This document shows positions 3,401 to 34,226 of a stretch of 43,281 bases of DNA, in pieces (positions within the stretch are counted from its first letter, which is position 1; each line of letters starts with the position of its first letter). The notes under the pieces are model-generated. The model saw only the letters and a program-made list of their open reading frames with translations. It searched no databases and was not told the origin of the DNA. Both the position numbers and the translations under genes were made by a program. This DNA is from Psammoneis japonica (lineage: Eukaryota), in contig QPGO01000343.1 of NCBI GenBank assembly GCA_008632985.1, positions 1-43,281 of the forward strand, in the 5' to 3' direction.

Positions 3401-5380
3401 CGAAGGAAAGTGGTCTCAGGCAGGGCATTTCTCATGCTGGCGTTGTGGCAATAGATATTTCTTGGTGGACGTCATGTCGCTCGAGCTTTGTGGTGATGAT
3501 GTCGACGCTCGCATTGCGCGATGAGCTGCCGCGAAGACGTCCATTTCATTTTCTGTGATGCCGGACGAAGAAACAAAGCTCGTGGACATGAAATTGCCAT
3601 GCCTTGTTTGCGAAGATCGAAGGTTGAAGGCGGTGGATAGGGACTTCCGATCCCTTGTATCCCAGGTGGACAATCGCGAAGAGGATGTTGAAAATGATTT
3701 ATTTCGATTTCAATTTGTGAAGAATGGGAACAAATAAAGCGAACTCGATCTGCGCATTGAGTCACCACGCCTTGTGTACATTCCGAATGCAATGGCTGAC
3801 GTGCTGGGCTTCGTATCACTTGCAAGCAGTGGCAGTCTCACGGAAGAGGGCAAGCTCACAGGGTCGGAAAACTCTGCGCACGACGAGAAAGAAATTGAGG
3901 TTCACTTCAACGAGCATGGGGAGGATGTGGAAACGTCCTTCGTCCCATCCAAAGATGATGTTTCAACGACTTCTATTTCGACATCCACCGGAAGTTGCAG
4001 CGTCGTTCTGGTTGATGTTGGACACTCGTCCAATGCAGTGAGAAGAGCATCTATGCTATCAACTGCAGGTTGCACTGGGCAGGTAATGGAGGCGGTCGTC
4101 CTTCAGTTGCATGAAAGCCAAGATGTCTCGTGTGTCTTAAATCGAAGGCGGCAGACTTCTCAGCACTGATGTAGAAATGCATGGCGAAGGAATGGAGACA
4201 CACAGTGCACATGGAAGGTTTCTAGAGAGTCCGTTGCAAATTGTAGAAACCGCAAAGGTGACTTTGGTAGTCTCGACGAAGTCAAGTGCAACGAAATTTA
4301 TTGACGTTGACATCAAACTCGTCACCTTATCGCCGATATATAACATGGTGTTTTCAATGCAGAACCAGCTCTCGCGAAAGCCATTAGCCATTAGTTCCGG
4401 GTTTTCACAATCTCTCGGGTCGGAAGCCGAAGACGAGCAAGTTGTCCACATCAGCGAGCAAGAGGCATCACGAATTGAACGACTGGCGCTACAACTTGAA
4501 TCTAATGCTGGCTTCGAAGCTTCGAGTGACAGGAAGGTGTTGCACACTCAGCAGTCTGCGGTGGCGTTGTCTTCGGTGACATCGCCCGGTTCCCGAAAGA
4601 CTGCGGCTTTGCCAAGTTTGGACGTAAAATATGACCATGCCAGAAACAACGACAGCCTTCATGAATGTTCTTCAAGGTATGGATGAAGCCCTGTTCAGAA
4701 CAAAAGCTAGGAACTTTGTGGCCTGTGCTAAGGTCAGGAGCGGCGTGGTTCCTCAGGCTAGATTCACACACCAAGTTGCCTTTGAGTGTCATGTCAACAC
4801 ATCCGTTCTAGCAGGCTGTTGCTTCCACGAACATGTGGCAACAACTTTTGGTGAAACCGTGGGAAATCACAATGAACAGCGCTCGAGGCGTCAGTCGGAG
4901 ATTTAACTCTCAAAGTGTGTCCACTGCTGTGGACATCGAATCTTTCCCGTGTCACGTGTCATTCTCAGAGCAATTCCTTGATGGCACTGGCGCTGCAAAT
5001 CGCATGTGGTCAGTCTTTTCCTTGGCTTCCGCTGATGGTGCGGCAGAAAAGATTTCACCAAAAGCAAGAGAGAAGGTGTTGAGTTCGACACGCTCTCTGA
5101 CTGCCACCCTGCCACACGCAATTGAGAACCATTCCGGGGTTGATGCATTTCTGTCTTTGATGGGGGAGCGGTGCAGCGAGCGCTCTTGCCCCAGTGGAAC
5201 TGTGCAATGCTTTCGATTTGAACCTCCTGGCCGTCAAGGTTGTGGCGGACTTGGGTGCTACGGACAGGATGTTTCCCAGCTAAAGGGTCTTGTTTTGATG
5301 CTGGGTGAAAGAAGGATAGAGACAGAAAGCATCGACAAGGAGACAAAAGAGCCCAGACACGCTCACTCACTGGGACACTC
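474..5380 (+). pseudogene. VPS13: VPS13-family (chorein-like lipid transfer protein) gene relic, internal portion, with many frameshifts and stops
   Basis: Successive + strand ORF fragments carry VPS13-like motifs in plausible order: PPIIILQKSC..DVLVFDLGHFSL (1171-1437), LIIPQAAYSPEHLTLHAGDLNV (2776-3558), WQQLLVKPWEI and LPHAIENHSG (4833-5606; cf. WEPLxEPW and PYxIxNxTG). The many frame breaks exceed those seen in the intact genes of this window. Ends are approximate. Confidence 0.7.
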
Positions 5381-6669
5381 AGAAGAAACTCAATTGTCGT
5401 TCCACAAGAAGTTGGTGCAGGACATGCCCAATGCTGACTCTAGAGAGTGCTGTCACATGGTGCCATGTCGACAAATCAGTGTGAGCTCCCAAAAGACATG
5501 CAGGCTGCTTGCCACCTGCAGCATTCTTTGCTTTTCACTGGCTTTTTGCTGGGGCGATGCCCAAGCAGACTGCACCTGGGGCTCATTCTTTGTTGCCAGC
5601 CGATGACACGAGCGGCCTTTTCTTTCTTCCAGCTCGCTTCTTCCCCGTAGATTTGCCCTGACATTCTGACGACTGGTCGCGCTCGTCCACGAAAGAAAAC
5701 ATGGGTGCAGAAATCAACTTCTTTTGATGTGCTCGTGGATGGTGGTTGAGAAGTCCACCTGCTTTTTGGGTTCCGAAACGAATTCCGTGTCAACAGGAGC
5801 ATGCTCAGAGGACCACATCGTGGAATTGCAATCGTGGCGAGGAATGTCGTCTGGCAACTCCTTCCACATCATTGTTCGGGCCAGTTTGAGTTGTGAATGT
5901 TTGGGATGGTGGCGGATTTGGGCCAGCGATGACACAGGCCAGTCGTGAATTGTTCAGGAGGGCAGTGGTGGATGTGGGCTGCGGCACGCGAATGTTTGGG
6001 ATGGTGGCCAAATTTTTGGTGCCAGGTGGACACGCAGTTTTCTGCACTGGCACAAATGTTCATGCTCTGCTGTGCATGTCGCGCGCGCTCGGTCATGCAT
6101 GCCCAACAAGGAACCCGGATCTGGGTTCCTTGCCTGGTGCAAAAATGTTCAACAATTTAATTTTTTTACACTGGGCAAGAAAAAAGGTTGGATCTGGGTT
6201 CCTTTTCCTTTTCCAATGATGTCATGACACAGGAGAAGGACGGACGGCATGGCTTGGGAATCTGGAACAAAAATCGATCATCAAAATCACGCCACAACGA
6301 ACATCGCTTCTTTGCAACCACTGCACTGGCACCAACCATCAACCATCTCCCATTTCTCCCTCCATGCAAGCAACATGCCGTCAACAGAGTCGGCTGGTGA
6401 AAAGAAGAAGAAAAAGAAAAAGTCTTCAAAGTGATCCAACAAGTCTGAGAAACCTCGTCATGATGATCCCGAGCCACAGATCCAAGATCACGAAGCAAAT
6501 GTTGCGGCTCATCTTGTTCACTGTTTGGAGCACAAGCCTGCCCCGATTGCAGCAATGGCATCTGCACGTGTTGTTGGAAGAGGACGTGGTCGCATTTTGA
6601 GTCGGAGCAACGGGCACGTGGAACCAAAAAGTCCATCTCAGAAATGGCGCACGCTGTCAACCATTCACG

Positions 6670-6960
6670 GTCAGTCGAATCGTCCAATCAACACCATGGT
6701 CTGGACTCGTTGTTTGAACAATGACAGCAACACTCTTGTTGGTGCTTCATCAGATGGCACCTTGTCTGTGTTGGATTGGGAGCAGGGTGTGTCCTGCAGT
6801 GTTGTTTCCTCTGGGGGAGGTGGTGTGCAGTGCTTGGCGAGTCTCTGCAATCACGCCGAAAACAACGATGAGCACAAGACATGCTGCAATCTTGTTGCTG
6901 CAGGATGTGAAGATGGAGCAGTTCGTGTCTTTTCTGCATGGGGGAGAGCGTGGAGCATCA
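6670..6960 (+). pseudogene. WD40-repeat gene fragment, degraded
   Basis: ORF 6525-7097 contains TLVGASSDGTLSVLDW and LVAAGCEDGAVRVF, two WD40-like repeat ends. It is Tyr-free and lies in the TA-depleted zone. Confidence 0.5.
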
Positions 6961-8235
6961 TTCATGTTTGCAATGCACGACGTTTTCAACCGCTGCCGGA
7001 GGTGTTTCAGCCACTTTCGCTCCTCTTTTGCTCGACTTGCCGCCTTGCACAAGAAACCGAAATTGTCTTGTGTCATGTCCGAGTCGCTTGCATTTAAATT
7101 CGTGGCATTCTCTGTCATTCACCCCACGCTGTTGGCATCAGACCGCTCTGCATTTGACAGGCCTGACTCCAGCAGCTGCTGCAGCTCCAACCTTTGCTGC
7201 TCCGGATCGAGAACCTGAGTTGCCTGTAGAATCATCCGCAAACGAGCCGTCGTCTGAGACTCCGAAACGCAACAATGCCTCAACACCGACTGAAGCTTCG
7301 CTGCAGAGTGATGATGAACCAGCACCCAACAAGCAGGTGCGGTTTGACAGTGGTGAACGAGATGAAACAGCATTTTCGGCATCCTCCATGGCCAGTGGTG
7401 GAAGCAACAAGCGCGGACTGGTGTCACGCCGGGGCGGCAGGCATTCAGTGTGGCTTGCCGCACCGAGGAACAATCAAAAAACGACGACAATGATGGTGCA
7501 GTGACTTCTCTGACGTCGTCGAACAGCAGTGGTTTGTGGAACTCAAGCTCACCCGAGCAGGCCCAAAAGGGACCACTTTGCAAAGTCTCAAGCTGAAAAA
7601 GGAACTGAGAACAAGGTTGCAATCAAGAACGATGTCGCGACCTTGTCGGATTCATCACACTTGCAGTTCCACGAAGTGAGGTGGTGCGGCCAGGTGCAGC
7701 TGCAACGGCAGAGCAAAAGGGGAGACCAACGTCCATTGCTGTTGGTCCATCCATGATTGCATCCGCAAGTCCGCTGGCTCCACACGATGGTTCTCCTTCT
7801 GCCGCATCCAGAAAACCAAAATTAAAAAACCACCCAACCTGCCCCAAAAGAAAAAGAGCAGTGAAGGCTTTTAAGTTGTCGAAGGAATGTTGCCTTTTCT
7901 CCAAAGGCAACCGAGGCAACACCGAGAATTTCTCCTGTCAAATCACCGGCCGTTCGATTTTTGCCCTCCTTGATGATGCCAAATTGCAATCCCTCGGAGG
8001 ACTCTTTTTGTTGCCCTGTTGTTCGTCACCACGACGGTGGAGAAACTCCCGGAACGTGGGCCAGGAGCGGGAATGACGGACTTCATGCTAGACTTTGGAA
8101 AGGGACATGAATTGCTGTCGTCATTTGACACATCCAATGGTGAGTTGACTTCATTTTGTTGTCTTTGTCTGCTCGCTCGCTGTCGTCATGCTGCTTGCTG
8201 GCTGCCTCTACTTTTCGTCCTTGTTGCAGTCCTTG

Positions 8236-8602
8236 TGCAGCACGCGACTGTTGTGTGCACATTCATGATTGTGTGTTGTTTGTGTGTCAATCGTGCCACA
8301 GTCGTGGATGCGTGCAAAGGACAGAACGATCACACAGAGTTGATCGGATGTCGAGAATTGCAAACACGATCGATTGACGATGTTGACATCTTGCGTGTCA
8401 ATGGCAATCGCACCCGGACAATCTGTTGTCACGAATGCATTCTCCGAAAGGCCTTTTGTCTGTAGAAGCAGTGCAGAAGCTTTGGGCCATTGAGAACTCG
8501 TTCGGAGAAACCAAAAATCACAGAGCAAAATTCAATCTCATAATTTCCACTTTTCGCACACTGTTCTACTTTCGTTTGCACTCGTTCTTCGAGCACAGTG
8601 CA
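8236..8602 (+). repeat. 5' LTR (367 bp)
   Basis: TGCAGCACGCG...GAGCACAGTGCA; aligns without gaps to 12600-12966. Confidence 0.95.
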
Positions 8603-10729
8603 TTGTGCATGCACACCACAGAAGGTAAAAAGCATGGAAAATGAAAATTTTAACTAATGTGCCTTTGCAAATTCTTCTACAAACAGGAACGAATCGCATC
8701 AGTTCTGCTGGAATCGATTTCCGAGCGGAAGAAGCTCAAGCCGAGCAGTGCCTCAAGATGGAACGCTGTTTTTCGTCTGCCAAACAAGAGGATTCGCTCT
8801 GACACGGTCTGTTCCAAGCACCCAAGGATCAAGGGCTCTCAAGCACACCGCATTGTCAAAAAATCTACACCAAGTCATGGTTGCAGAGAGTGCAAGTTCC
8901 GAGTCGATCAGATCCGAGAAATGCGTCTACCATGCAAGGAGAGACCATTGGAGAGTTTTTTGAGATCGAATCGATGATCCTCGAGTCCAAAGAGCAAGAG
9001 GGAATCGTTGGAAAGTACCTCAAGCGTCTCGTGACTCATGTCCTCCGAGGAAATGCACTTCAGAATCAGGGAAATTATTTTCGAGACGACCTGAAGAAAC
9101 CAGAGCCGCTCAACAGCAAGAAAGCCTCTGACAGACCCAAGAGGTCAACGATGAGAGTCCATGCGACCCTCAGATGGATTCTAAGTCGAATCTAGCGGGA
9201 AACCGAGCGCTGATTTATCAGCCATCACTCGCACCGCAAGGATGGCAGCATCAGTCTACTGTCCAAAACAATCAACTGTTGCAGCTCATCCTTGATGAGC
9301 TGATTAAGTTTTGAGTCATCCAAAGGTCGTTCATGACGTCCGTGACGAAAAAACATGTCAACTCAGGCTCTGACAGCGCAGCTGGTTCCAAAATTAAAAA
9401 GGTTCCAAATTTGGTTCCAAAAATGGTCTCCTGTGTGGTGCCAGAACAATCCAAAGTGAATGCAAGGTCTCATCTTTGAAAAAAGAATGCCCACATCACG
9501 GATTGAAGCTGTTCTAAAAATGAACTAGCAAAAGAGTGCAAGGGTGACTCTGAAAGAGACCCAAAAATGCGCCGTTCAAATGGCAATCGCACGCAGTCAC
9601 GTCGCGACAACGAAAATGCCGCTCGCAAAAAAAGAGATGAACGTCATGATTGATCAGGCGGTTCAAAAAATGCTCAAAGCGAGTTCCTTGAACAAAGAAA
9701 AAGAGCACAAGGGCAAGGAATCAGATTCTGACACCCTCAGTGAAGAAAAACACCAATTTGATCGGATGATCCAGACTGAATCCGAAGAACAACTTTGGTC
9801 TGTTCACGAATTGTGTGCTTTGCTGGACATTGGGAAGCCTAGAAAAAAGGCAGAAATGATTCACACTGGTCCAGGAGTCATCATTTATGTGAATGCTTCC
9901 TTGGGAAAGGAGAGAAAAAAAAGCATCTGCGTGTTCCCATCGACAACGGAACATTGTCAACCACAATTTTGCGCAAATTCGTGCGAAAGTTGAGAACACA
10001 AGAATCCGCCACCAAAAACTTGGGAAACCAAGGGTGAGCTCTTTACGACTGACAGCAAACACCGAACTCAGTTCTCACCATGCGAAATTTAAGGCATGCT
10101 GACATTCAAACAGCACATGTTGAAAACACCAAATTTTCTTCAGGTTCAAATGACATGATCATGGGACACGACTTAATGTCCAGTCCTGCAAGTCACATTG
10201 GACTGCGCAAATGCAGAAATCTAATGGGAAGAAGCAATTGCCTTATGAAGAATGTTCACACACTCTTCGATGCCGATGTTTTCAAGCTGAAAACCGATCA
10301 CATTGAAAAATGTGACGCCGTGAACAGAGTCAGTGACGGAACCAATGGTCCTCGACTCACATTGTCACGCCATCGATCTTAATCAAGTGACAACTACGGC
10401 GATGCATCTAACCCAAATGAACACAACCAACTCAATCTTCTTCTTAAGAGGTTGAAATCGTTTTGAAAAGTTCCTCAGACGAATGCATGGGAAGCACCAG
10501 TGGATCTCATCGTGGAAAATCTGACGCGATTCCACGACGCGTGAGAACCTTCTCCTATCATAGTCTTTGGAGGCGTCCAATCAAAAGGAGTTTGACCCAT
10601 TATGAAAGATTGAAGTCTTAAGAATGAAATTGCTCTGAACAAGTCGCTCTGAGACTCATTGTCCAAAGAAAACAGGTCGAGTTCGACCGCATCCGACACT
10701 CAGAAGCTCAGCACAAGGTTCATACAGGT

Positions 10730-12290
10730 GGTGTATCCTTTACCCAATATTCAGGAAATACTGTTGAAGCAAGAACGTTTCATATATGTAATCTATTTGA
10801 TTCAAACATGGAATGCCACCATGTCAAATAAAAAAGCACACGTCGTGCTCACACGAAAATCATGCCGTGGGGAGAAAATGAGTGCTGTGGACTTCCAATG
10901 AGAATCTATAGAGCCCCAGATATTTTTATACAACACTTGAGTGAACTCATAACAGGTTTGAAGTTGTCAGAACGACTGTGTGTGATCGTTTGTGCCTGAC
11001 AAAAGTAACTTCAAAATATCACCTGTACAAGTAACAGCTTAATACGGCATTCAAACGACTAGAACAGTCGCTTAGAAGGTTAACAACAAAAGTCCTTCAC
11101 TATTTAACTTGAAATAAACTATCAAGACTTCCATGCGTAACGACATGCAATCGATTGCAAAGAAAATGGAGGCGATTCAAGCAATCGCAACACGAGAAAA
11201 ACGTAAAGAACACTACGACATCTCGTTGTCATACGTTACTATTATCGAGACATGTAGTCTCAACGATCTCCTGTACAATACTAGCCAAATTCACCTCAAT
11301 AAAGGTCAAACGGCAAAAGTACAAGTACGGAACGAAAAGTCTCCGAAAATATGGAGCGTATCAAATCAAAAACTATATTGTTATCATACACGGATTTCAA
11401 TATTATACGTTACAACGGAAAAAAGAACTTCTGTCCATAGTGAAAACACTTATAAAATTCCGAAATATACTGTTCGGCCAACATATTTATACATATACGG
11501 ATCATAAGACACAACGGACAAAGTCATACGTTGACAACTTCAGTCCCGAATTAGAATACAACGAGGGCAAGGCGAACATCGTCGCGATAGACGCGATCAG
11601 CCGACTTACTATAGAAAATTGAATCCTACGACAATGTCCTACCGTTAAAACGGGATAAAGACATTCCCTCCAAATTGTCGGACGCGACATATCATACGAA
11701 CACTTTTCGTGGAGGCGAGCGAGATCGAAAAATGCTCATGTCACAAGGATAAAATCGCCTTTTTAAAGGACGATTTAGGAAAAAACAGTGACAGATTGGC
11801 ACACATTATACGTGTCCACTTCACACTGGCAAAAGACAATCTCACAACACCCGTACGGTTGTATTGTACAATGTACGAGGCAAGACATTAAAATATACAT
11901 CATGTCGACACACGAGATGTGCCAAAGATCTAGAAAAAGAAAAGAAAAATGGACATTCATCCACTCAGTGCACGAAACCAGTGCCTTCGGAATGACAAAA
12001 TGACACCGGTGTGTCAGAAAGAAACGTCCAAATGACGATTAAAATCCAACTGATAGATGGTTGAAGTACAAAAAAAAAAAAATCCATGATGGAATTCACA
12101 ACCATCACAGGATTGATCATCAAGACGAAATGGTCACAATGTCTTTGACCATCGTTTGTTGTTGCTTGTGAAACGTGGCAGTGCAGCAGAGCAATGTGGC
12201 ACATAAAGTGAGCCCGCCAAACTGCATGAAATCCACAAGCAAGCAAGTGAATGCCATGATTAAGAGTGTACATTAAGCACTGGGCACGAT
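10730..12290 (+). pseudogene. Gypsy pol remnants (reverse transcriptase, RNase H, integrase)
   Basis: YPLPNIQEILLK (RT, about 10734); KELLSIVKTLIKFRNILFGQHIYTYTDHK and FSPELEYNEGKANIVAIDAISRL (Ty3 RNase H, about 11420-11610); NPQA...IKSVH*ALG resembling the integrase NPQANxxxERxH motif (about 12230-12290). Confidence 0.85.
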
Positions 12291-12588
12291 GCCATGTACA
12301 ATCGACATCAGGAAAAACACTTGCTCGCTCCAGGACAATCAGTCCTTGTGTTCATGTCAACAAGAACGTCAATGAGAACACTCGACGTAACACCACACAT
12401 GTGCACATCAAGTGAGAAACAAACAATGTCGCTCTCAAAAGACATTCGGAAATTGGAGCGGCCCCACATTGCCCACACAAAACAACAACAGTCATTGCTG
12501 ATGGCACAACACAGTGAAAGTGGAGACATCATGGACACTGTCGATGTCCGTCGAACAATCCACTTACAAATGACTCCAATGTGCAATT

Positions 12589-12599
12589 GGGGAGGCGAA
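12589..12599 (+). promoter_or_regulatory. Polypurine tract of the Gypsy element
   Basis: GGGGAGGCGAA immediately upstream of the 3' LTR start at 12600. Confidence 0.7.
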
Positions 12600-12966
12600 T
12601 GCAGCACGCGACTGTCATGTGCACATTTGTGATTGCACATTGTTTGCACGTCAATCGCACCACAGTCGTGGATGCGCACAAAGGACAGAACGATCACACA
12701 GAGTTGATCGGATGTCGAGAATTGCAAATACGATCGATTGACGATGTTGACATCTTACGTGTCAATGGCAATCGCATCCGGACAATCTGTTGTCACGAAT
12801 GTATTCTCTGAAAGGCCTTTTGTCTGTAGAAGCAGTGCAGAAGCTTTAGGCCATTGAGAACTCGTTCGGAGAAACCAAAAATCACAGAGCAAAATTCAAT
12901 CTTATAATTTCCACTTTTCGCACACTGTTCTACTTTCGTTTGCACTCGTTCTTCGAGCACAGTGCA
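12600..12966 (+). repeat. 3' LTR (367 bp)
   Basis: Ungapped match to 8236-8602 with 22 mismatched bases by manual alignment, all transitions. Confidence 0.95.
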
Positions 12967-13699
12967 CTTGCGTGGCTTCCATCGCCAACTGCCCATGGCC
13001 TTTTTCACCGGGTGGTGAATTGGGATCGACTGGCAACGCTCCGCGAATGTTCGCTGCACCTCACACACCGCGTGCACCCACCGTCAGCATGTCCTTTTCC
13101 GACTGTGCGAGTCTGCCAAAGAAATGGAAAATTCACCTCTCCCAAGTGAGAGGAAAAGTGACCCGCATCACAACAAGGACAACTCTCCAGCATGATTTGC
13201 ACACCACCTCTTGCAAACCGTAATAGAGTGGAGCTCTAGAACAAGGTGGTGCGGGCTTTGGCTGACACGCCGATGCAAGAATGCAGTGATGTCTTCTCGT
13301 CATCCCGTCTCTCCTTTGCCACGGGATGGCTCCGGAATGCCGGCAAGATGCCTGCCAAGGATTCGAAGAATCGTGGCAGACTGAGCCTTGATTTGGCTCA
13401 CATGGTGGAACGATGTTTGATGGAGGATGAGGACTTGAGCGTCTTGCTGCAGCTGGCGTCACACTGAAGCATGCGGGGACAACAAGGCGCAATTCTCTTT
13501 GGGGAAGGTCGGAGGTACGAAAATGCGGACGAGAACTTGGATGATTGTAGCGGCCAATCATTGGGGGTCAGAAAAGCCCTGGTTGCAAGGCAAAGTTGGA
13601 TCGAACGACAGCCTTTAGAGAGCCCGCCGATTTTCTGTGAATGACTCCACACCGCTGCCTCTTCCAATTAATTAGATCAAGCTCATCTGGTGCTTCAAA

Positions 13700-14823: not shown

Positions 14824-14979
14824 TATTCTACACTCTAGACAGAGATGCTTTCTGCATTTTTCGGATGCGCGTAACTAGTAGATAAAGATAGAAACTGCCG
14901 CGTTTACTTATCGACAGCTCTATGGCCTACTTGTCTTGTCATTCCTACACGATTTCTTTCATCATCTTCTTTCTTTGAT

Positions 14980-15470
14980 ATTCCTTTCTTACGTTCAGCT
15001 CTACTCACGGCATTGGTTCCGAATGTGGCGCTGCTCACGAGCCTTCTTCAAGTCCCCTCCGTCGGTCGAATCGAAATCAGAAAACGACTGGGTCAAAGCT
15101 TCGTATCCCAAGCCCAGCCCTCCAAAGCACAACTACAATGCCGCTCAGGACGCGATGCATATGAACAGCAACTTCATGGAGGCGCAAGGCAAGACGCATC
15201 GTTACAACGTCAATGAGCCATTTGTTTCGTAAGTTTTTGTGGCTGTTGCTGTACGGCCTGTGATATAAACGCTTGTTTCTAATGTCACATTCTTTCTTTG
15301 ATGTTCTTTTTCTTGCGTTCAGCTCTACTCATGGCATTGGTTCCGACAGTGGTGCTGCTCACGAGCCGTCTTCAAAGTACAAGTCCCCACCGTCGGTCGA
15401 TTCGGAATCAGAAAATGACGACGTCAACGTTTCGCCTCCCAAGCCGAGCCCTCCAAAGTATCAGCACCAA
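14980..15470 (+). repeat. Diverged tandem duplication of a splice acceptor plus exon start
   Basis: CGTTCAG|CTCTACTCACGGCATTGGTTCCGA...AAGTCCCCTCCGTCGGTCGAATCGAAATCAGAAAACGAC...CCCAAGCCCAGCCCTCCAAAG at about 14990-15130 recurs in diverged form at about 15315-15460. Confidence 0.8.
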
Positions 15471-15823: not shown

Positions 15824-15967
15824 TGAGTGTTTCGACTGGGGCTGAGTCTTTTGCTATTGCAGGTGGAAGAGTTTGTCCATGATTGTATCTTTCTTTTCAT
15901 TCAGACCCGCATTGTCTTACGGACATGGACCCGACAACACGGCAGACGGGAAATAAGTTACTATCAC

Positions 15968-17297: not shown

Positions 17298-17338
17298 GAT
17301 TGGTTAAATGACGTCAGTGGTTGATAATTGCATCCAAT
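17298..17338. promoter_or_regulatory. Candidate promoter motifs: CCAAT boxes and a TGACGTCA bZIP-type site
   Basis: GATTGG at about 17298, TGACGTCA at 17309-17316 and CCAAT at 17334-17338, upstream of the CDS at 17715. Confidence 0.35.
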
Positions 17339-17346
17339 CAACTCAA

Positions 17347-17596: not shown

Positions 17597-17602
17597 TCAA
17601 CT

Positions 17603-23900: not shown

Positions 23901-24911
23901 CTTTTTACCTCTGCCATCTGAAAAACAAAGTTGTTTTTGTTCAGAGTTGAAATTTGCTTGATGAGAAGTTTGTGCTCTGGTCAAATGCTCCTTCACTGTG
24001 AATGAGTGGCTTTTTAGCCACAATTGGCCAAATCAACATGGTGGGAAGAAACCAGGCTCAGGGAAATTTGTTGTCACAGTGCACGTGGGCTCTTGACAAG
24101 ATTTGTTTTGAACTCAACCACAGTGCAACAATTGTGAATGTCAGAGTGTCAACTGTTGACCAAGCTGGCAAAGTGATGGGGAACAACAGTGAATGAAAGG
24201 TGCTGGTTCATCACTGTGCACATGCACCTGAGTTGATCTCTTCAACCATTGTCACTCATTGGCTGGAGCAAGCCAGCAATTGCATTTGTTCATTGTTTGT
24301 CAACTGGCACACATTTTGTAATTTTGGTTTTCAGCAATGCCAACTGCTTTCAAGCCTGGTGACATTTGACATGTGACACATGCTCTTGTCCCATGTTCGC
24401 TGTTTTTGCCCCCTCTGTGATTCAAGCTGTCATCTCATTGTCTGCCCCATTGTCTCTTGCAGTCATCTGTTTTGAATCTTGGTGTTGTTGGCTGTGCTGG
24501 CATTGCATCATGTTTGGCTCTTTTGTGTTTCAAAGAGAGCCAGTTTTTGTGTGACAGCTTTTCATTGTGAGACATGATGCCAATCCCCAGGAAAAAAAAG
24601 CCAGCAGAGAAGTTGTCTGTTTGGTGCTTTTTTTTGTGATCACAGCCACAATGCTGCCATTCCTGCTCACCTGTGTGCAGTGTTGCAGCACTTTGTTTCT
24701 CATCCTTGGCTGTTTTAAACAATTTGTGTGGAGATTCAAGAAACAAAGCAAGGTGGCACAAAATGCCAGGTTGTTGTTTCCTGCAACAAGCTGCTTGCTC
24801 CTGTGTCACAAATCTGACCTCCTTTCTTGCCTTTGTTCTGGCAGCTTTTCTTTGTTGTTTTTGAGTGCTGAGTCCTGGATGTTGTCAGTGCCTTCCCGCA
24901 ATGTCACAATT

Positions 24912-27737
24912 GTGAAAACAACAACACAAAGCACCAATCAATGTCACACAGGCACCCATCTCAAGTCACAGAGTTGGTTGTGCAAGTGGCTGCAAACACC
25001 AAGCTGTGCCCAGCAGGTTGGCAAAGACTTGAGCTCTTCAGCTTCAGAGTGAAGTGGCCCCATGATGGCAGCACCCACCAACCCAACAAGCAACAGCAGG
25101 CTGGGAGCATGACAACTGGCGGTCCTTTTCAGACCCCAGAGGCAACACTCCAAGAACTGTGGTTGCAAGCACTGAGAAGTGCAAGACCAGCATTGTGCAT
25201 TTGTGGTGCCTTGTTGCACCCTTTCACCCAGAAACATCACACTTCAAACTTCAAAGCCCCAACTCCAGAGTGAAAGGACTGCCTGAGGATGGTGCCAACC
25301 AGGCAACTGCAAGCCAAGGACATTGGCGGTCTCTTGTGGATCCCAGGAGACACTGTCCACAACAACCATGGTTGAGCAGTGCGATGCCTGTTGTGTGTGC
25401 TTGTGCCCCCCTGCACCACCTTTTGTCCTGACAGGAGAAACAGACTTCAGCTTCCCAACTCTGCGGCAAAAGGGCAACATGGTGGTGCCAGTCAACACAA
25501 AACAGCTGCAAGCAGAGGACACTGGGCCTGGTGGTGCATGCTTCTGAACACATTTTCCACCACTTTTGCCACTGAAATTTCAAACAGCCAACATCTTTGA
25601 ATGAACCATGTGATGCTGGATCTTGAAAGCAAACAGCTTTTCTTCAATGTGAAAATGACAATGCAAAGCACCAATCAATGTCACACAGGCACCCATCTCA
25701 AGTCACAGAGTTGGTTGTGCAAGTGGCTGCAAACACCAAGCTGTGCCCAGCAGGTTGGCAAAGACTTGAGCTCTTCAGCTTCAGAATGAAGTGGCCCCAT
25801 GATGGCAGCACCCACCAACCCAACAAGCAACAGCAGGCTGGGAGCATGACAACTGGCGGTCCTTTTCAGACCCCAGAGGCAACACTCCAAGAACTGTGGT
25901 TGCAAGCACTGAGAAGTGCAAGACCAGCATTGTGCATTTGTGGTGCCTTGTTGCACCCTTTCACCCAGAAACATCACACTTCAAACTTCAAAGCCCCAAC
26001 TCCAGAGTGAAAGGACTGCCTGAGGATGGTGCCAACCAGGCAACTGCAAGCCAAGGACATTGGCGGTCTCTTGTGGATCCCAGGAGACACTGTCCACAAC
26101 AACCATGGTTGAGCAGTGCGATGCCTGTTGTGTGTGCTTGTGGCCCCCTGCACCACCTTTTGTCCTGACAGGAGAAACAGACTTCAGCTTCCCAACTCTG
26201 CAGCAAAAGGGCAACATGGTGGTGCCAGTCAACACAAAACAGCTGCAAGCAGAGGACACTGGGCCTGGTGGTGCATGCTTCTGAACACATTTTCCACCAC
26301 TTTTGCCCCTGAAATTTCAAACAGCCAACATCTTTGAATGAACCATGTGATGCTGGATCTTGAAAGCAAACAGCTTTTCTTCAATGTGAAAATGACAATG
26401 CAAAGCACCAATCAATGTCACACATGCATGCACCCATCTCAAGCCACAGAGTTGGTTGTGCAAGTGGCTGCAGACACCAAGCTGTGCCCAGCAGGTTGGC
26501 AAAGACTTGAGCTCTTCAGCTTCAGAATGAAGTGGCCCCATGATGGCAGCACCCACCAACCCAACAAGCAAGAGCAGGCTGGGTGCACAACATTTGGCGG
26601 TCCTTTTCAGACCCCAGGCAACACTCCAAGAACTGTGGTTGCAAGCACTGAGCAGTGCAAGACCAGCATTGTGCAACTGTGGTGCCTTGTTGCACCCTTT
26701 CACCCAGAAACATCACACCACAAACTTGAAAGCCCCAACTCCAGAGTGAAAGGACTGCCTGAGGATGGTGCCAACCAGGCAACTGCAAGCCAAGGACATT
26801 GGCGGTCTCTTGTGGATCCCAGGAGACGCTGTCCACAACAACCATGGCTGAGCAGTGCAATGCCTGTTGTGTGTGCTTGTGGCCCCCTGCACCACCTTTT
26901 GTCCTGACAGGAGAAACAGACTTCAGCTTCCCAACTCTGCAGCAAAAGGACAACATGGTGGTGCCAGTCAACACAAAACAGCTGCAAGCAGAGGACACTG
27001 GGCCTGGTGGTGCATGCTTCTGAACACATTTTCCACCACTTTTGCCCCTGAAATTTCAAACAGCCAACATCTTTGAATGAACCATGTGATGCTGGATCTT
27101 GAAAGCAAACAGCTTTTCTTCAATGTGAAAATGACAATGCAAAGCACCAATCAATGTCACACATGCACCCATCTCAAGCCACAGAGTTGGTTGTGCAAGT
27201 GGCTGCAGACACCAAGCTGTGCCCAGCAGGTTGGCAAAGACTTGAGCTCTTCAGCTTCAGAATGAAGTGGCCCCATGATGGCAGCACCCACCAACCCAAC
27301 AAGCAAGAGCAGGCTGGGTGCACAACATTTGGCGGTCCTTTTCAGACCCCAGGCAACACTCCAAGAACTGTGGTTGCAAGCACTGAGCAGTGCAAGACCA
27401 GCATTGTGCAACTGTGGTGCCTTGTTGCACCCTTTCACCCAGAAACATCACACCACAAACTTGAAAGCCCCAACTCCAGAGTGAAAGGACTGCCTGAGGA
27501 TGGTGCCAACCAGGCAACTGCAAGCCAAGGACATTGGCGGTCTCTTGTGGATCCCAGGAGATGCTGTCCACAACAACCATGGTTGAGCAGTGCGATGCCT
27601 GTTGTGTGTGCTTGTGGCCCCCTGCACCACCTTTTGTCCTGACAGGAGAAACAGACTTCAGCTTCCCAACTCTGCAGCAAAAGGGCAACATGGTGGTGCC
27701 AGTCAACACAAAACAGCTGCAAGCTGAGGACACTGGT
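24912..27737 (+). repeat. Tandem array of about 737-bp units (about 3.8 copies)
   Basis: GTGAAAA...CAAAGCACCAATCAATGTCACAC recurs at about 24912, 25649, 26386 and 27125. Near-identical ORFs recur at the same spacing (25323/26060/26799/27534). Confidence 0.95.
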
Positions 27738-28640
27738 GGCATCTGACAGACCCCCCAGGCGACACTCTGAGAGCTGTTGTTGGGCATTGCAAGATTGATC
27801 TTGTGGTGTTGTGGCCCCATGTTGTCACCTTGTCCTCAATGGCAGCAGACTTGAGCTGCCAAACCCAGAGTGAGAGGACTGCATGATGACACCAGCCAAC
27901 CTGACAGCTGCAAGATGAGTGCATTGGTGGTGTCCAGTGGCCCCAGGTGTGATTCAAGAACCACAAGGTCAATCTTGCAGTGTTGTGGCCCCATTTCACC
28001 TTGTCCCCAACAAAAGCAGATGTGAGTTTCTGAACTCAAGGGTGAAAGGAAGGGCCCCATGATGGTGCCAACCAGCCTCACAAAACAGCAAGCTGGGGCA
28101 CTGGTGGTCTCTGATGGACCCCAGGCAACACTTTAAGAGCTGCAACTGAGCATTGCAAGAAGGTTGACTTTTGTGGCATTGTGGCTGCCCCGCCCATGTT
28201 GTGTTGTCCCCAACAGAAGCAAACATGAGCTTCCAAGCCCCAGAGTGAAAGGACCCCATGATGGTGCCAACCAACCTGACAACAGCAAGCTGAGGACACT
28301 GGTGGTTTCTAGTGGGCCCCAGGCTGGGCAAGACTTTGAGAACTGCAGCTGAGCATTGCAAGGTTGATCTTGTTCTTGTGTTGTGGCCCCATGTCATCTT
28401 GTCCCCAACCACAGCCGTCTTTGCTTTTTTCCCAGCTCCAGAGTGCAAGGATCCCATGACAGTGCCAACCAACCTGACAACTGCAAGCAGCCAGAGGGCA
28501 TTGCCAGTGTTTGGCAGACTCCAGGAGAGATTTGAAAAATGTGGTTGGGCATTGCAAGGTTGATCTTGAGGCATTGTGGCCCCATGTCACCTTGTCTGCA
28601 ACAGCAGCAGAGTTGAATTTCCAAACTCCAGAGTGACTCA
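27738..28640 (+). repeat. Diverged monomers of about 170-200 bp, related to sub-repeats of the 737-bp unit
   Basis: CCAGAGTGAAAGGACCCCATGATGGTGCCAACC-like motif at about 27864, 28037, 28239, 28438 and 28628, with TTGCAAG.TTGATCTTG and GTGGCCCCATG motifs between them. Confidence 0.8.
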
Positions 28641-28879
28641 TTCAAAGGCCCAATTGCTGAGTTTAACAGCAGGTGAGCAAAACTTCAAAATGCAACATGC
28701 TGGGAATGCCAGAGACATGGAGTTGTTTTGCAGTGGCAAAATGGGGGCTTGTTGAGGAGAGTGGAGAAATTTTCAGAGGCACCTGATTTTTGAAACCATT
28801 TTCTCTTTGTTGGAAGGAAAGAAAACCTGCTGCAGCTGGGCCAGTCATCTTCCATTTTATCCTGATCTAGAGCTCAAGC

Positions 28880-29400
28880 AAGAATGGATCTCATGGAAGG
28901 ATTGGTTGAGGTGTGAGCCCAAAATGTGAAGTTGAGCTTTGTTTGTTGTGTGCCACACAATTTTTGGAGGCTTCTTGTCAAGCTTTCCTGCCATGAAAGT
29001 TGTTGAGTGGGTTTTTATGGCCATTCTCATTGATGACACAGTTGTTGCAATGTGGCACCAATCATTGTCCATGCTGCTGACCTTTGCACAAAGTCTCAAC
29101 ATCAAATGAGTTTTCCATCATCAAAGCCTTGGTTGCTGTCACTTGTGAGTCTGGGCCTGGAGTTGGGTGCACAGAAAATGCTTGCCCTTGCTTCTCTCCA
29201 ACAAGCAAAATTGGTGCCTTCACTTTGACAAGCATGGCATCCAAACAACCCTCTGCAATCTTCTGCAAGAGACAAAAACAAAAAAGAGCTGTGCAGACAG
29301 TGGACATGTTTGGTGTGAAATCTGTGTTGTCAGGCACATCCAAAACAGAGTGCACTGTGCAAGCATGGACCAACACAAAACACCAAATCAAATCACAGCC
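28880..29400 (-). pseudogene. Possible Copia gag-like relic
   Basis: HSVLDVPDNTDFTP...ALFCFCLLQK and IATTVSSMR...HSTTFM loosely resemble diatom Copia gag once C/H are read as former Y. The similarity is weak. Confidence 0.2.
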
Positions 29401-30125
29401 ATGTTGGCCCCCCTGACAACTTGGTGCTCAAAAAAGTGCTTGTGTGGCACATTTGTTGTCAATTGACAGCTTCAAATTGACTTTGCATGAAGTGCAAATG
29501 GACACATGCTGCAATCTGGGTTGACATGACAAGGTGAAACCAGTTGGCAAGCATTCATGATGGCAGGGGAGCAAGTGACAACATGGCCATTGTGGGGGCT
29601 GCACCTCAGACATTGTGAGCTCAACTCTAGAGTGCAAATTGACATTTGACAGAAGGGAAGGATTCAAGTTTGTGCTGCACTGTCATTGAAAAGGTGTTGG
29701 TTCAACAATTTTTTCCCATTTTTGTCAGACATGCAATGAGGTCACAGTGAGTTGCAACAGGGTTGCACCATTGTCATGCAAGAGACAAATGCAGCAGAAA
29801 TGCTGAAAAGAAGATGCAATGGGCAATCAAGCTGAAGCTCCTCTTCACACAAATAAATCAAATCTAAGCAAGGTGCTGGGCCACAAAACAAAACACATTG
29901 CAAATCCATGGCCATTGGAAAAAGTGGCTGTCAACCCAAATGTCAACTTTGTGGCTGAAAATGAGTGGGCCAGCATCTGAACATTGTTCTCAGAGCTGCA
30001 GTGACACCTGTGCAGAGCACAATCACAGGCACAGAAATCATGTTTCTTGTCAACTGATCTTCTCATTGACAGCAAAAACATGTTGCAGATGGGGCTCTGG
30101 CTCAAAACCACAGACTTGTTTGCTG

Positions 30126-33100
30126 ACTTGTGAGCAAATTTTGCACACATTGTTGTTGCATTTGCAGAAACTGGGCATGCACAATTTGACATTTTATCTT
30201 CTAAATCAACCTTTGCAACATGTGCACAATCACACAATGCGCACTTGGATTCTTCTTGATTTTTGATGGCACGTCATCCTCAAGACAGCAGCAAGAAACA
30301 GCAATTTTGTGAGCTCTCTCAACCTTGATTTGAGGGCTTGCAAGTGCAGTGGGGGCTTGCACATGCAAGGATGGCTTGGGACTTTGGGCCCAAGAATGTT
30401 GTCACAAGAGCAAATCAGCCCAAGAATGTTGCAACAAACAATGCAGGTCATGGGAAAGCAAGGAAAAGGCTGCATGGCCACATGAGACTGGCCCAAGCAG
30501 GGCTGCACAAAGAAACCTGCCAGGGTCTCACACAATGTTGACAGGGCTGTTTTGTTGATGATGTCACAACAACTGTCATTGTTTGCCACCAGACAGGGTG
30601 TTGTTGGATGGAACAACAACTTTGGCTGCAAAGAGCAAGTGTGAAACTTGAGCATGTCAGGGTGCCCAGAGAGAACAAGATGTTTGCTGGTGTGCTGAAA
30701 AGCAATGCCAAATGGAGGGTGTGCTGTCAGTTGAATGCCATGCCCTCCATCTGGTGGTTTTGTGCTCCCTTGTCTTGAACTCTGACAGAATCTCAGCATC
30801 CAGAGTTCTGCCCAAATGTGTCTGCAGCTGCACTGCTGGGTTCAGGCAAGAGCAATGAGAGACCCTCCCACTGCTGCTTCTTGAGTCAAATTGTTGACAA
30901 TCTCTCTGTTTTTCTGAGAAAGCACCAACGTTCATTGACGGCCATTGTGTTGCTCAGAGGGGAGTCAGCTTCTGTGACAAAGAAGGGGCAAGCAGCACTT
31001 GAAGACACTGGGGACTGGCTCAAAACTTTCAGCAGCAATGTGGCTCTTGATGAGGAAAAAGCAGTTGTCATCATGGGTGACCTCCTGCAATGAGCAATGA
31101 GCAGCACAAGAAGTGTGCAGTGCCAGGAGAGTGGAAGTGCCTGTGATGACAACAATGTGAAAAGGCATTGTTGAGCCAAACATCACTCTTTGGAAATGAC
31201 AATTTTGGCAATGTCAAAATTGTTTTCAGAGCTGCAGCTGCAGTGACCACCTCAATTGATTTTTGAAAAAATTTGACACCTGTGGAGGGCACAACATTGC
31301 AGGTGTGGAATTTTGTTTCTTGTCAACTGATCTTCTCATTGAGAGCACAAACATGTTGCAGACAGCATTTTGCTTGATTGATTGTCTTCTCACCCAAGCA
31401 ACTCAGAAAAGTGTGTGTGGCTCTTCTCCTCACACACAATGACATTGGGTTGATTTTTCAGGAGTCACATGACAACCCATCATTTTCACTGAGTTGTTTG
31501 TCTGTCCCGCTCTTCTTCTGGCATGTCAAAAATGCATTTGATTGGAAAAAATGTGTGCAGAGTGTGCACGCAGTTCTTCTTCAACACTCCTGTTGATGGC
31601 ATGCTGCAGGTTTCTGAGCACATTGTCCACTGCCACATTTGTTCACACCACCATCATTTCAAAACATGCAGATGAATGAACCTTCAAAGAGCCAAGGTCT
31701 TTGAATGAACTTTGTGATGCCAGATCTTGAAAACACAAATTGGCTTTTCTTCATTTTCTTTTGCCAACTTGTGAGCAAAGTTTGCACACATTTTTGTTGC
31801 TTGTCACATTTGCATGCAAAATTTGACAGTTGTCTTCTGAATCAACCTTTGCAACATGTGCACAATCACACAATGCACTTGGATCATTTTTGATTTTTGT
31901 GGCACATCATTCCCAAGACAGCTGCAAGAAAGATTGTTTTTGTGAGCTGGCTCAACCTGGATTTGAGTGCTTGCAATTGCAAGGGGGGCTTGCACAAGCA
32001 AGGACAGCATGGAATTTTTGGCCCAAGAATGTCATCATCAGAGCAAATCAGCCCAAGAATGTTGCCACAAGAGCAGGTCATGGGAGAGCAAGGAAAAAGT
32101 GGCATGGCCACATGAGACTGGCCCAAGCAGGCTGCAGCAAAAAAACCCTGCAAAGGTCTCACACAAGGATGCAGGGCTGTTGTCAATGTCATGACAGCTG
32201 TGATCATTTGCTGCCACCATGCAGAGCATTGCTGAACAAAACAAAAGCTTTGACTGCAAAGAGCAAATGCAGAACCTGAGCATGATGGGGCCATGCAAAA
32301 GATGTTCGCTGGTGCTAAAAAGAAGGACCCAACAAAGGGTGCACTGTCAGTTGAATGTCATGCATCCATCTGGTGGTTTTGTGCTCCCTCTTTTTGAACT
32401 CTGTGCCAAGATCTCAGCATCCAGAGTCCTGCTCAAAAATGTCTGGAAATGTGCTGCTGGGTTCAGTCAAGAATGATGAGAGAACCTCTCAGAGAAACTG
32501 CCAGCATTGATGGCCACTGTGTTGCTCAGAGGGGAGCCAGTCTCTGTGACAGAGAAGAGACAAGCAGCAGTCCAAAACACTGGTTTGCTGCTGCAAAGCT
32601 TGCAGCAGCAATGTGACATGATTTTTGAAAAGGAAGAAGCAGTTGTCATGGTGAGTGGCCTCTTGCAAGCATCACAAGTGAGCAGTGCCAAGAAAGCAGA
32701 AGTGCCTGGGATGACACCAGGACAAATGGAGTGGGTGCTGTGATGGCCATGTGAAAAAGCAGGATTGAGTCAAGTGCCACTCTTTGATCAAAAAGCTCAG
32801 AAGGGGTGTGTGCAAGCTTTTCCCTTGTTTTCAAAAGTTTGGCATCTTCTCAGGTGTTGTTTGGTGTTGGAGTTTGCAGCATTGTCAGCTGGAAGGTCGC
32901 GGGGGCTTGGGTGGTCAACCATGTGAGGAGAAATGCACACCTTGAAATCAAAGTGCATGGGCACATCAAAACGCCATTTCAAAAATTGCACAAAGCCAGG
33001 AGGGAGCAGTGGCTGCAGACTGTTCACCAGAAGCAGAGGGACACCTTGGCTGTTGACTGGAGGACTGCTGTGTTCAGCCATGTGAGGAGTCACTGGGCCA

Positions 33101-33260
33101 GGAAACACCAGTCATTTGAGCCAATGTTGTGGCACACATGCGCACCTGAGTGCACTTGCACTTTTTCATTTTGAGCAGCTGAGCAACTCCAACAAAAAGC
33201 ACTGGTCTCAGGGAAGAAAATGATGACAGCACACATGGCAACAAAGACTGGGTCATTGAC
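30126..33260 (+). mobile_element. Ty1/Copia-like integrase-region relic, with about 1.1 kb duplicated in diverged form
   Basis: 30126 to about 31200 aligns with 31767 to about 32790 (e.g. GGCATGGCCACATGAGACTGGCCCAAGCAG; TGTGTTGCTCAGAGGGGAG). Fragments HGHMRLAQAG, LLRGESASVTKKG and VNHVRRN...KTPFQKL resemble diatom Copia pre-integrase/integrase segments. The duplication is solid; the family call is tentative. Confidence 0.4.
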
Positions 33261-33510
33261 AAGTGGGCCAATCAGGCAGCTGCCAAAGATGAGTGATTTG
33301 AGGGTGAGCTGAAAAACATTGAGCAGAGCACAACACAGCAGCATCACAGACAACAATGTGCTCACCATGACAGTGCCCAACTGACTGATCTTGTGGCTTT
33401 TTGATTTGATGGGCAAGGAGACCAAACACATGGCAAAAGTGAGAGAGACCCAACAAAAGCAAGCTGACATGAGCAAGGGTGGACAATGAGCACATTGTTG
33501 CTGTCAGTCA

Positions 33511-33532
33511 GAGAGAGAGAGAGAGAGAGAGA
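33511..33532 (+). repeat. (GA)11 microsatellite
   Basis: Perfect GA run. Confidence 0.95.
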
Positions 33533-34226
33533 GCAGCTGGAGCATCACACAGGTCTGTGTCTCTGCATTGGCAGAGTCTGCCGCATGGCTGCTGTCAACA
33601 TTGGTGAGGAGCCCAAGCTCAAAAAATGGGAAAAGCCGATGTTGTTGAGATCCATGACAGCAGGGGAGCATGACAAAAGCAAAAAAAGAACCCTGGACAA
33701 GCAAGAGAGTGACGAGACAATTGTTGACAACGGCGGCATTTGAGGTTTGGTTAGCCACTCTGAAGTTGTGCTGCAGCTTGGTCATGAACAATGAAACAAA
33801 GCAGAGCAAACAAGGTGAAAAAGAAGCTCCAGTTTCCATGAGCGCCAAATGCTCCAGGCCCTGCCTGTGTGGGGTGCAGCCAGCATGGCTGGGTCGAGAG
33901 GTGGCGGATCAAAACACCGAGAGAAAAGAGGAAAGCACAAAGCATGAAAAAGCTGCAGCCGAGAAAAAGCCCTTTGGGATTTTTGGTTGAGGGATCTGCG
34001 ATTTTCGAAAATTCAAAAAGATTTGGCTCGCTGGATCGATGCGATAGATAGACTAGATTGTTGACCATTCTTGTCTTGCTTTTCTTCTTTGCGTCGGTTG
34101 GGCACGGGCGCCTGCGCGAAATAAAAGAACCTCGTTTGGGCGTCCGACCGTTGTCAGTCGCAGCTTACAGTATTTACAATGGCGTCGCCCTGAAGATCGA
34201 AGTTTCGGCCACCACGAGAGACAGTG

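Follow-up and report, generated by a model that had tools for sequence, protein, structure and literature searches.

Evidence for regional TpA-to-TpG/CpA transition hypermutation in two tracts of a diatom contig

A contig of the Psammoneis japonica genome assembly (GCA_008632985.1, QPGO01000343.1; 43,281 nucleotides, analysed over its full length and hereafter called the window) carries two tracts in which the dinucleotide TpA has been almost erased, with TpG and CpA in its place. Tract 1 comprises parts of a VPS13-like and a UTP4-like gene copy together with a Ty3/gypsy long terminal repeat (LTR) retrotransposon, and tract 2 is an intergenic block with tandem repeats. Both tracts have very probably undergone context-specific transition hypermutation, in place and at the level of DNA. 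The change runs from TA to TG or CA, a direction supported by three independent tests, namely conserved tyrosine columns in protein alignments, a sister copy that retains TA, and the two LTRs of the retrotransposon. The changes were made in the chromosome after insertion of the element, they are symmetric with respect to strand, and they are confined to defined regions. The favoured target is 5'-TAY-3' (Y, pyrimidine), and a slower decay of CpG accompanies the loss of TpA in the same tracts; both features are new here. A region-restricted mutator converting TpA to TpG/CpA had been proposed in an original prediction made from the letters of this DNA alone, and the same three tests bear that proposal out.

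Composition was followed by a 500-bp scan and by dinucleotide tables for each region, with the expectation (0.0413 TA and 0.0580 CG per bp) taken from the flanks at 1-2700, 13600-21300 and 34100-43281. By composition, the tracts extend over ~3.0-13.5 kb, of which 10.55-12.0 kb is spared, and over ~21.5-34.0 kb. The depletion is partial at 3000-4999 (41 TA against 82.5 expected), severe at 5000-8231 (13 against 133; log10 P = -40), and evident again at 8232-10550 (30 against 96) and 12000-13500 (21 against 62), whereas the intervening 10551-11999 holds 94 TA against 60 expected and is not depleted. Tract 2 retains 18 TA in 21500-33750, where 505 are expected (log10 P = -187). Not one TA lies between 24717 and 28133, an interval that includes all four 737-bp units of a tandem array, the first of which had already been described as TA-free. 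The borders near 13.5, 21.5 and 34.0 kb are abrupt: the final dense TAs ahead of tract 2 lie at 21481-21499 and TA is back at 34045, and the flanks have an observed/expected ratio (O/E) of ~0.6 for TA and ~1.0 for CG. The zones of near-absent TA in the original prediction are thus confirmed as depleted, except that the first begins at ~3.0 kb rather than at 4.7 kb and the last at ~21.5 kb. Neighbouring genes, including those for a metallophosphoesterase and a SET-domain protein, do have normal TA, as had been claimed.

What has been lost as TA and CG is recovered as TG and CA. Each of these two products stands at ~1.9 times expectation in tract 2 and at ~1.45 times in 4700-10500, and the remaining 12 dinucleotides lie at 0.75-1.30 in tract 2. 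The mass balance is close, with a gain of 1188 TG+CA against a loss of 1135 TA+CG at 21500-33580, and of 154 against 156 at 5000-8231. Six-frame translation reproduces the Tyr-poor, Cys/His-rich, TGA-ending open reading frames (ORFs) reported earlier: Tyr accounts for 2.4-2.5% of residues in the flanks but for 0.03-0.09% in the tracts, where Cys and His are enriched, and 627 of the 656 stop codons in tract 2 are TGA, all because TA has been lost to TG and CA. As an outside control, the surroundings of orthologous diatom-type VPS13-like genes at 27 metagenome loci (283 kb) were scanned in 548 one-kb windows, whose TA O/E has a minimum of 0.27 and a median of 0.64.

The direction of change can be read from protein alignments. 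The VPS13-like copy, which extends past the left window edge, spans residues ~360-2140 of homologues of ~2150 amino acids, and its final third, from ~3000 onwards, is TA-depleted. From 113 matches, the 43 homologues of at least 1200 amino acids were aligned to the window by tblastn, and a column was taken as a Tyr column where at least 60% of at least eight homologues have Tyr. In 1-2999, Tyr is kept in 10 of 11 such columns, the exception being a His at 2791, whereas in 3000-5600 it is kept in one of seven, the others reading Cys, His and Phe twice each (Fisher p = 0.0025). Conserved Phe, Trp, Cys and His columns inside the tract keep their residue in all cases, and the damage is therefore specific to the codon that contains TA. 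Two conserved Tyr columns of the UTP4-like sequence likewise read His (at 6531) and Phe. One of the two motifs originally cited for the direction of change, the VPS13 motif LPHAIEN, stands, for the consensus of homologues is SLPYAIENH and the window has His at 5115-5117. The other is not supported: an AP2 motif reading SRCIG (TGC at 14620-14622) lies in TA-normal DNA, and the read contigs described below have a single other letter in 14047-15601. Nor did Pfam, at E up to 1, match any of the proposed AP2 fragments (14335-14499, 14548-14658 and 14677-14820). Short ORFs at 14335-14820, placed around an 84-nt intron, look like the AP2-type gene that was meant.

A second line of evidence comes from three public sequencing runs of one sample (X1, X2 and X3), whose contigs were compared with the window over 4500-24400; X3 gave none. 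The contigs are 93-97% like the window over 4.5-8.2 kb. There are 403 differing places, of which 40 are listed, all within 5078-6550, and the classification rests on these 40. At 23 of them the contig has TA where the window has TG (10) or CA (13), at five it has CG where the window has TG or CA, and 12 are of other kinds. With 23 changes of the TA type to five of the CpG type, decay of CpG is the slower of the two. A contig T at 5115 turns the His codon of the window's LPHAIEN into Tyr, and a T at 6531 does the same in the UTP4-like sequence. The totals for X2 (window to contig) run the same way, with 40 C>T and 67 G>A against 14 A>G and 22 T>C, alongside 25 transversions.

The sister copy lacks the retrotransposon. 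In contigs of both X1 and X2, position 8231 is joined directly to 12967 with a single CTTG (four common letters), an empty site that exists as DNA, covered at a depth of 35 in the DNA-type contigs of X1. A contig of X2 skips 14501-14586 with GT..AG ends, corresponding to an 84-nt intron at 14502-14585, and from this one skip X2 is taken to be transcriptome-like. Hence there is a copy that retains TA and is free of the element, and transcription appears to proceed from this copy. Its divergence from the window falls from ~6-7% at 5.3-6.9 kb to 2.8% at 12967-13922, 1.3% at 13203-13732 and 0.06% at 14047-15601, and its contigs have depths of 32-41, compared with 57 in unique DNA. Falling divergence and depth together favour an allele over a distant paralogue. 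Some segments reach depths of 91-158, and further copies must therefore exist. Additionally, at 5429 a second X2 contig has the letter of the window and differs from it at 5426, which indicates more than two versions in the sample. X2 gives no cover over 8484-12467 and 21100-24400, and these intervals were not used as evidence.

The retrotransposon itself supplies the third test. It interrupts the UTP4-like gene copy and is young and insertion-polymorphic. Although truncated and without integrase, it retains a reverse transcriptase (RT) at 10628-11401 and an RNase H at 11419-11637 (tblastn; Pfam RT_RNaseH), and its family is high-copy, with a summed X1 contig depth of 8000-18000 where unique DNA has ~57. 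An element integrates with two identical LTRs, so the 15 difference events in the 367 gapless columns of this pair record changes made in the chromosome after insertion. All seven double differences are TG in one LTR and CA in the other, a pair that cannot be reached in one step and that points to an ancestral TA (less likely CG) resolved independently in each LTR. The single differences comprise five with TA in the 3' LTR and TG or CA in the 5' LTR, two of CG against TG, and one unrelated C/T. Accordingly, 19 of the 22 inferred single-base changes fell at TpA, two at CpG and one elsewhere. Among the 15 recognisable TA sites, 12 have changed in the 5' LTR and seven in the 3' LTR, and a single change is found at positions outside pyrimidine-purine (YpR) dinucleotides across the 367 columns. 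The per-site rate excess in the LTRs over background is estimated to be at least 100-fold. From the element, tract 1 extends leftward for ~5 kb into the VPS13-like copy. At its left edge a lone N stands at 3117, ~120 bp to the right of the drop in TA density near 3000; if this N is an assembly join, the TA-normal and the depleted parts of the VPS13-like copy could come from different haplotypes or copies. In the same gene copy the reading frame breaks at 4813-4821, shifting within 7 nt where homologues have 4-8 residues, which is either a true frameshift, and so pseudogene evidence, or an indel error of the assembly.

The two products are equally frequent, and in tract 1 they do not cluster (runs test z = 0.41 and 0.13); the value for tract 2 is z = -2.04, within the range of -0.58 to -3.5 seen in the flanks. 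A strand bias within the LTRs, where TG falls in the 5' LTR at six of the seven double differences, was considered and set aside (p ~0.13 by estimate, with no support from the runs tests). A preference for the following base emerges when TA sites are sorted by the number of strands that read TAY (0, 1 or 2) and their survival is expressed relative to the flanks. Survival for these three classes is 0.99, 0.47 and 0.31 at the 3-5 kb edge (heterogeneity p 0.02), 0.63, 0.20 and 0.07 in 5000-10550 plus 12000-13500 (p 5e-10), and 0.15, 0.03 and 0 in tract 2 (p 8e-8). The loss at 3000-4999 is thus limited to TAY contexts. Survival with two such strands is approximately the square of survival with one, the relation predicted for independent attack on each strand at 5'-TAY-3'. 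The products show the same preference, in that the gain of TGY exceeds that of TGR (R, purine) and the gain of RCA exceeds that of YCA in the tract 1 core, in the element parts and in tract 2; the 3-5 kb edge is an exception, with a TGR gain of 22 and a TGY gain of 16.

The loss of CpG, which the original prediction had missed in tract 2, distinguishes the two tracts. CpG is kept to ~80% in tract 1 (O/E ~0.8, a mild deficit) and to 7% in tract 2, where 51 CpG stand against 711 expected in 21500-33750 (O/E 0.07). A CpG loss specific to TCG is not claimed, as it is about three-fold in tract 2 but reversed in tract 1. At the right border CpG is back ~450 bp before TpA (33580-34045), and the two depletions therefore lack an exactly common edge. 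Tract 2 is older than tract 1. Over 1070 aligned columns, the two copies of its ~1.63-kb tandem duplication differ by 41 transversions and by 41 transitions of other kinds, and in their double differences CA against TG is the leading class (11 of 37, the next class having 2); a global alignment of the pair put the CA/TG count at 20.

The targets seen are a high-copy Ty3/gypsy element, tandem repeats, and single-copy host sequence of VPS13-like and UTP4-like genes. The target may, as first proposed, be silenced or duplicated DNA, although the single-copy host sequence beside the element is converted as well. In the mechanism proposed here, the base attacked would be an A with a T before it and, preferably, a pyrimidine after it; both strands would be open to attack, and no long runs on one strand would result. 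CpG decays to TpG or CpA alongside, though less rapidly, so that the young tract 1 hardly shows this decay while in the older tract 2 it is complete. A single process that is fast at TpA and slower at CpG, acting for unequal durations, accounts for both tracts. The leading if tentative candidate for the mutator is an ADAT2/TadA-type deaminase acting on adenine in DNA, though another TpA-directed activity could take its place. As proposed for the rhizarian alga Bigelowiella natans, the mutator may be recruited by silenced chromatin that spreads from repeats. The CpG loss may proceed by deamination of 5-methylcytosine, a mark of diatom transposons. Genome defence would be the role of such a system, with the adjoining host genes as collateral damage. 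A more specific and somewhat doubtful version holds that a chromatin-guided diatom DNA editor of 5'-TAY-3' is triggered at a new insertion, acts on that one copy or allele only, and spreads over kilobases, so that Tyr codons are erased on the carrier while the insertion-free copy remains intact and expressed.

The same footprint could arise from other chemistry, in which the thymine of TpA is modified or damaged, for example when a TET/JBP-type enzyme oxidises it in silent chromatin to 5-hydroxymethyluracil or 5-formyluracil, and then pairs wrongly with G, or in which a biased, very-short-patch-like (VSP) repair of T:G mismatches fixes C, with T>C at TpA as the outcome. Mispairing with G is a property of 5-formyluracil, and in Escherichia coli CTAG is depleted by VSP repair. 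The pattern is strand-symmetric, and T>C on one strand is indistinguishable from A>G on its complement. A context has been measured for just one natural ADAT2 that edits DNA, and its preference is for GAA (PMC10354150). The preference for a 3' pyrimidine is nonetheless read most simply as a single-strand T-A-Y motif, although R-T-A around the thymine is equally possible, and thymine chemistry is considered rather unlikely. An artefact of sequencing or assembly, in which modified bases of heterochromatin are miscalled by a long-read basecaller and TA and CG are written as TG and CA, is very unlikely, even though the X1 contigs at the 40 listed places have TA (23) or CG (5) and never the letter of the window. 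X1 also reproduces tract 2 without TA or CG: two contigs, 469 and 463 nt long, differ from it by six and 14 letters (1-3%), where ~45 per 470 nt would be expected of miscalling. In tract 1, moreover, the contigs differ by transversions, indels and the absence of the 4.7-kb element, and hence represent another molecule. A symmetric miscall settled by a majority of reads would give long runs of one product, whereas the products alternate within 3-20 bp, and the same sites carry different products in the two LTRs. The original prediction had held that reads with TA from another platform would refute it; X1 does have TA in tract 1, but on that other molecule, and tract 2 comes out TA-free again.

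Editing of transposon transcripts at the RNA level from A to I by an ADAR- or TAD-like enzyme, followed by reverse transcription, would have brought the changes in with the element. The retrotransposon does sit in the middle of tract 1, and ADAR-type enzymes are described as favouring a 5' U (Mettrop et al. 2026; bioRxiv 10.64898/2026.01.13.699255). However, conversion is strongest in host gene DNA outside the element, the LTRs differ at converted sites so that the changes postdate integration, TG and CA are equally frequent where editing of sense RNA would yield only one of them, and the RT-coding part is unconverted. This account is the least probable of those considered. Indeed, editing of any kind prior to integration is excluded by the differences between the LTRs at converted sites, the conversion of the host flanks and the near-equality of TG and CA. 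Finally, no dedicated mutator would be needed if old, unconstrained, methylated DNA had reached compositional equilibrium, or if selection acted against TA and CG. The age of tract 2, with the transversions and other transitions counted above, and its loss of CpG in the manner of methylated DNA are consistent with this. Tract 1, on the other hand, is young, its LTRs having one non-YpR change in 367 bp and yet 12 of 15 and seven of 15 TA sites converted. The integrity of Phe, Trp, Cys and His codons beside altered Tyr codons, a TA O/E of 0-0.1 that lies far outside the 0.27-0.94+ of the 548 control windows, and the sharp borders against normal genes likewise make an account without a mutator highly improbable.

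Several observations weigh against the proposed hypermutation or against parts of its mechanism. A simple spreading model does not predict the sparing of the RT- and RNase H-coding stretch at 10551-11999; later gene conversion from an unmutated copy and a local gap in targeting are both possible explanations. Amphioxus ADAT2 prefers adenine in the context GAA, not TA (PMC10354150). When the TAY strand rule is applied to the polarised products, it fits 17 of 23 against ~60% by chance, which is not significant alone. No TA-free tract was found in the 27 other diatom-like loci, whose contigs are gene-rich and which serve as a control that says nothing on whether other diatoms lack the process. 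In tract 2 the 737-bp units are TA-free jointly, which makes most of the loss older than their last amplification. This tract is also single-copy by depth (58-63 for its X1 contigs, compared with 57 in unique DNA) and of no recognisable origin, and a foreign or repeated target is thus only partly shown. Ordinary divergence also separates the two copies of tract 1, since 12 of the 40 listed differences fall outside the YpR class. Moreover, X1 has only the other letter at the 40 listed places, and the window version of 5.0-6.6 kb goes unseen in it; the contig filter may drop versions. X1 is possibly the assembly's own sample, and possibly not independent of the assembly.

The claim that no such pathway had been described no longer holds, as hypermutation of TpA is reported from B. 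natans (Mettrop et al. 2026; bioRxiv 10.64898/2026.01.13.699255). In mutation-accumulation lines of this alga, two integrated viral regions have a mutation rate ~1000 times that of the remaining genome; of the 231 mutations recorded there, 230 are A>G or T>C, and all lie at TpA (Mettrop et al. 2026). The genome contains 124 clusters of windows poor in TpA and rich in CpA+TpG, and domains of reverse transcriptases and DDE endonucleases are over-represented in its TpA-poor genes; the authors suggest an ADAT2-like deaminase acting on adenine in DNA (Mettrop et al. 2026). The process in the window is of the same kind, in a new lineage. In both, A:T is changed to G:C at TpA to give TpG or CpA according to strand, the affected tracts lie in an otherwise normal genome, and the long-term trace is a loss of TpA matched by a gain of CpA+TpG. 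They differ in that B. natans is a rhizarian whereas the present host is a diatom, a stramenopile, and in that its rate was measured directly in mutation-accumulation lines while here the process is known from its footprint alone. Depletion in B. natans is mild (Rho TpA 0.45 in a region of nucleocytoplasmic large DNA virus origin), compared with 0.03-0.1 here, and its targets are viral, whereas those in the window are an LTR retrotransposon, host genes of an essential type and a block of tandem repeats, with no recognisable viral DNA. In the text of the preprint, a term search for 'CpG' and 'diatom' returned 0 occurrences, and its abstract, Results and Discussion mention neither a joint loss of CpG nor a 3'-pyrimidine preference. 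The literature searched contained no report of such hypermutation in diatoms, and the B. natans preprint was the sole direct precedent.

Repeat-induced point mutation (RIP) of Neurospora and other fungi is triggered by sequence duplication and depends on the cytosine methyltransferases RID or DIM-2. Like the present process, it makes transitions in place in repeated or inserted DNA, leaks to single-copy neighbours, destroys coding capacity and leaves a dinucleotide footprint. Its chemistry is the opposite, as C>T mainly at CpA creates TpA, whereas the present process removes TpA and leaves CpA and TpG behind. Instead of the rise in AT that attends RIP, the converted parts of the element are richer in GC than its spared part (0.44-0.47 at 9001-10500 and 0.36-0.42 at 10501-12000). 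The one-strand tracts of RIP are unseen here, and single-copy DNA is affected over ~5 kb. Some diatoms do carry DNMT4, a relative of RID of unknown function, and DNMT5a maintains transposon methylation in Phaeodactylum (PMC9998398). CpG decay of the kind seen in methylated transposons would account for the CpG half of tract 2, but it cannot remove TpA. Tract 2 has lost TpA as well as CpG, and tract 1 has lost TpA with little loss of CpG (survival of ~0.1 and 0.8, respectively), so that pure 5-methylcytosine decay does not describe either tract.

In the natural tRNA substrate of ADAT2, a U precedes the edited A. The amphioxus enzyme BjADAT2 deaminates both A and C in DNA, with a preference for GAA and TCG, and so provides a case of one family acting on both bases, the TCG preference containing CpG (PMC10354150). 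The CpG loss in tract 1, by comparison, is not specific to TCG. Hyperediting of retroelements by ADAR or APOBEC enzymes before integration also leaves clustered transitions and is also read as defence. Such marks are strand-asymmetric and common to both LTRs, whereas those described here are symmetric, differ between the LTRs and reach into host DNA.

A TpA-directed mutator had been reported from a single organism in a single preprint; its signature is now found, far more complete, in diatoms, which are major primary producers of the ocean. Any mechanism must explain an action on the chromosome after insertion, on both strands and at TAY, together with a slower loss of CpG and sharp borders. 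The process can inactivate adjoining genes of an essential type in one copy. If it is general, the divergence between LTRs would be inflated several-fold, and the ages of diatom transposons and the status of pseudogenes would have to be reread; Tyr-free, Cys-/His-rich 'orphan' gene models would be explained; and a natural adenine editor of DNA would be indicated. Should a TAY-directed diatom editor of the kind outlined above exist, TpA editing would, taken together with Bigelowiella, be an ancient genome defence of the SAR (stramenopile, alveolate and rhizarian) supergroup, RIP-like in function and chemically opposite, and there would have to be a natural adenine editor that acts on double strands and recognises a defined trinucleotide.

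Table 1. Features of the window, by position on the forward strand
Feature	Position	Strand	Basis or remarks
VPS13-like gene copy	162-5400	+	phmmer and tblastn mapping; homologues with Pfam VPS13_N and VPS13_M
Graded left edge of tract 1	3000-4999		TA about half of expectation
Tract 1 core, host DNA	5000-8231		~90% of TpA converted, CpG ~0.8
UTP4 exon-like match (U3 small nucleolar RNA-associated protein 4, WD40)	6462-6932	+	residues ~100-280 of ~860
Target-site duplication CTTG	8232-8235 (left), 12967-12970 (right)		sequence context
Ty3/gypsy LTR retrotransposon, 4731 bp	8236-12966	+	LTR pair, RT, RNase H
5' LTR, 367 bp, TG..CA ends	8236-8602	+	3 TA, 22 CG
TA-normal, AT-rich hole (RT and RNase H coding part)	10551-11999	+	94 TA against 60
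3' LTR, 367 bp	12600-12966	+	94% identity to 5' LTR, gapless; 8 TA, 22 CG
Right host flank of element, TA-depleted	12967-13500		TA normal by ~13.6 kb
Metallophosphoesterase gene	19597-20931	+	Pfam; TA-normal, left bound of tract 2
Tract 2, intergenic, near-TpA-free	21500-33750		CpG nearly gone up to ~33580
Array of four 737-bp units	24911-27860		97-100% alike (best 300-nt register); TA in none
~200-bp subrepeats related to part of the 737-bp unit	27856-28640		repeat search, blastn
Old tandem duplication of ~1.63 kb	30119-32787		repeat search, alignment
SET-domain gene	34194-35963	+	Pfam; TA-normal, right bound of tract 2
TPR protein gene	36293-38461	-	best named matches diatoms, ~50% identity

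The remaining features were surveyed chiefly by protein-family and repeat searches. Pfam, applied to all 79 ORFs of at least 70 amino acids in 2.9-13.7 kb, returned only a weak WD40 match, RT_RNaseH and matches at chance level. In 21.1-34.0 kb it gave no protein-family match for 83 of the 103 ORFs of that length, the 20 others being duplicates in array units 2-4, and ESM Atlas had no usable match for the ORF at 21181-21945 on the reverse strand. ORFs of ~200 amino acids are expected by chance in this tract because only TGA remains as a stop. Between tract 2 and the rest of the window there is no ordinary blastn similarity, and matches after collapsing to purines and pyrimidines do not exceed 38 nt. 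No repeat reached score 80 in Tandem Repeats Finder (periods of up to 500), and neither tRNA genes nor Rfam families were found.

Judged from the TPR protein that it encodes, the window is diatom nuclear DNA, the best named matches of this protein including Fragilaria crotonensis, Asterionellopsis, Mayamaea and Bacillariaceae. The SET-domain gene, of the histone methyltransferase type, begins ~150 bp past the TA-free block, which is probably a coincidence. Direct repeats at 14985-15171 and 15309-15502, of 74-91% identity, lie in TA-normal, apparently genic DNA and have suffered no loss of TA. Two microsatellites, (CAA)n at 17596-17637 and (CAAA)n at 21320-21356, raise the local read depth and stand outside the finding.

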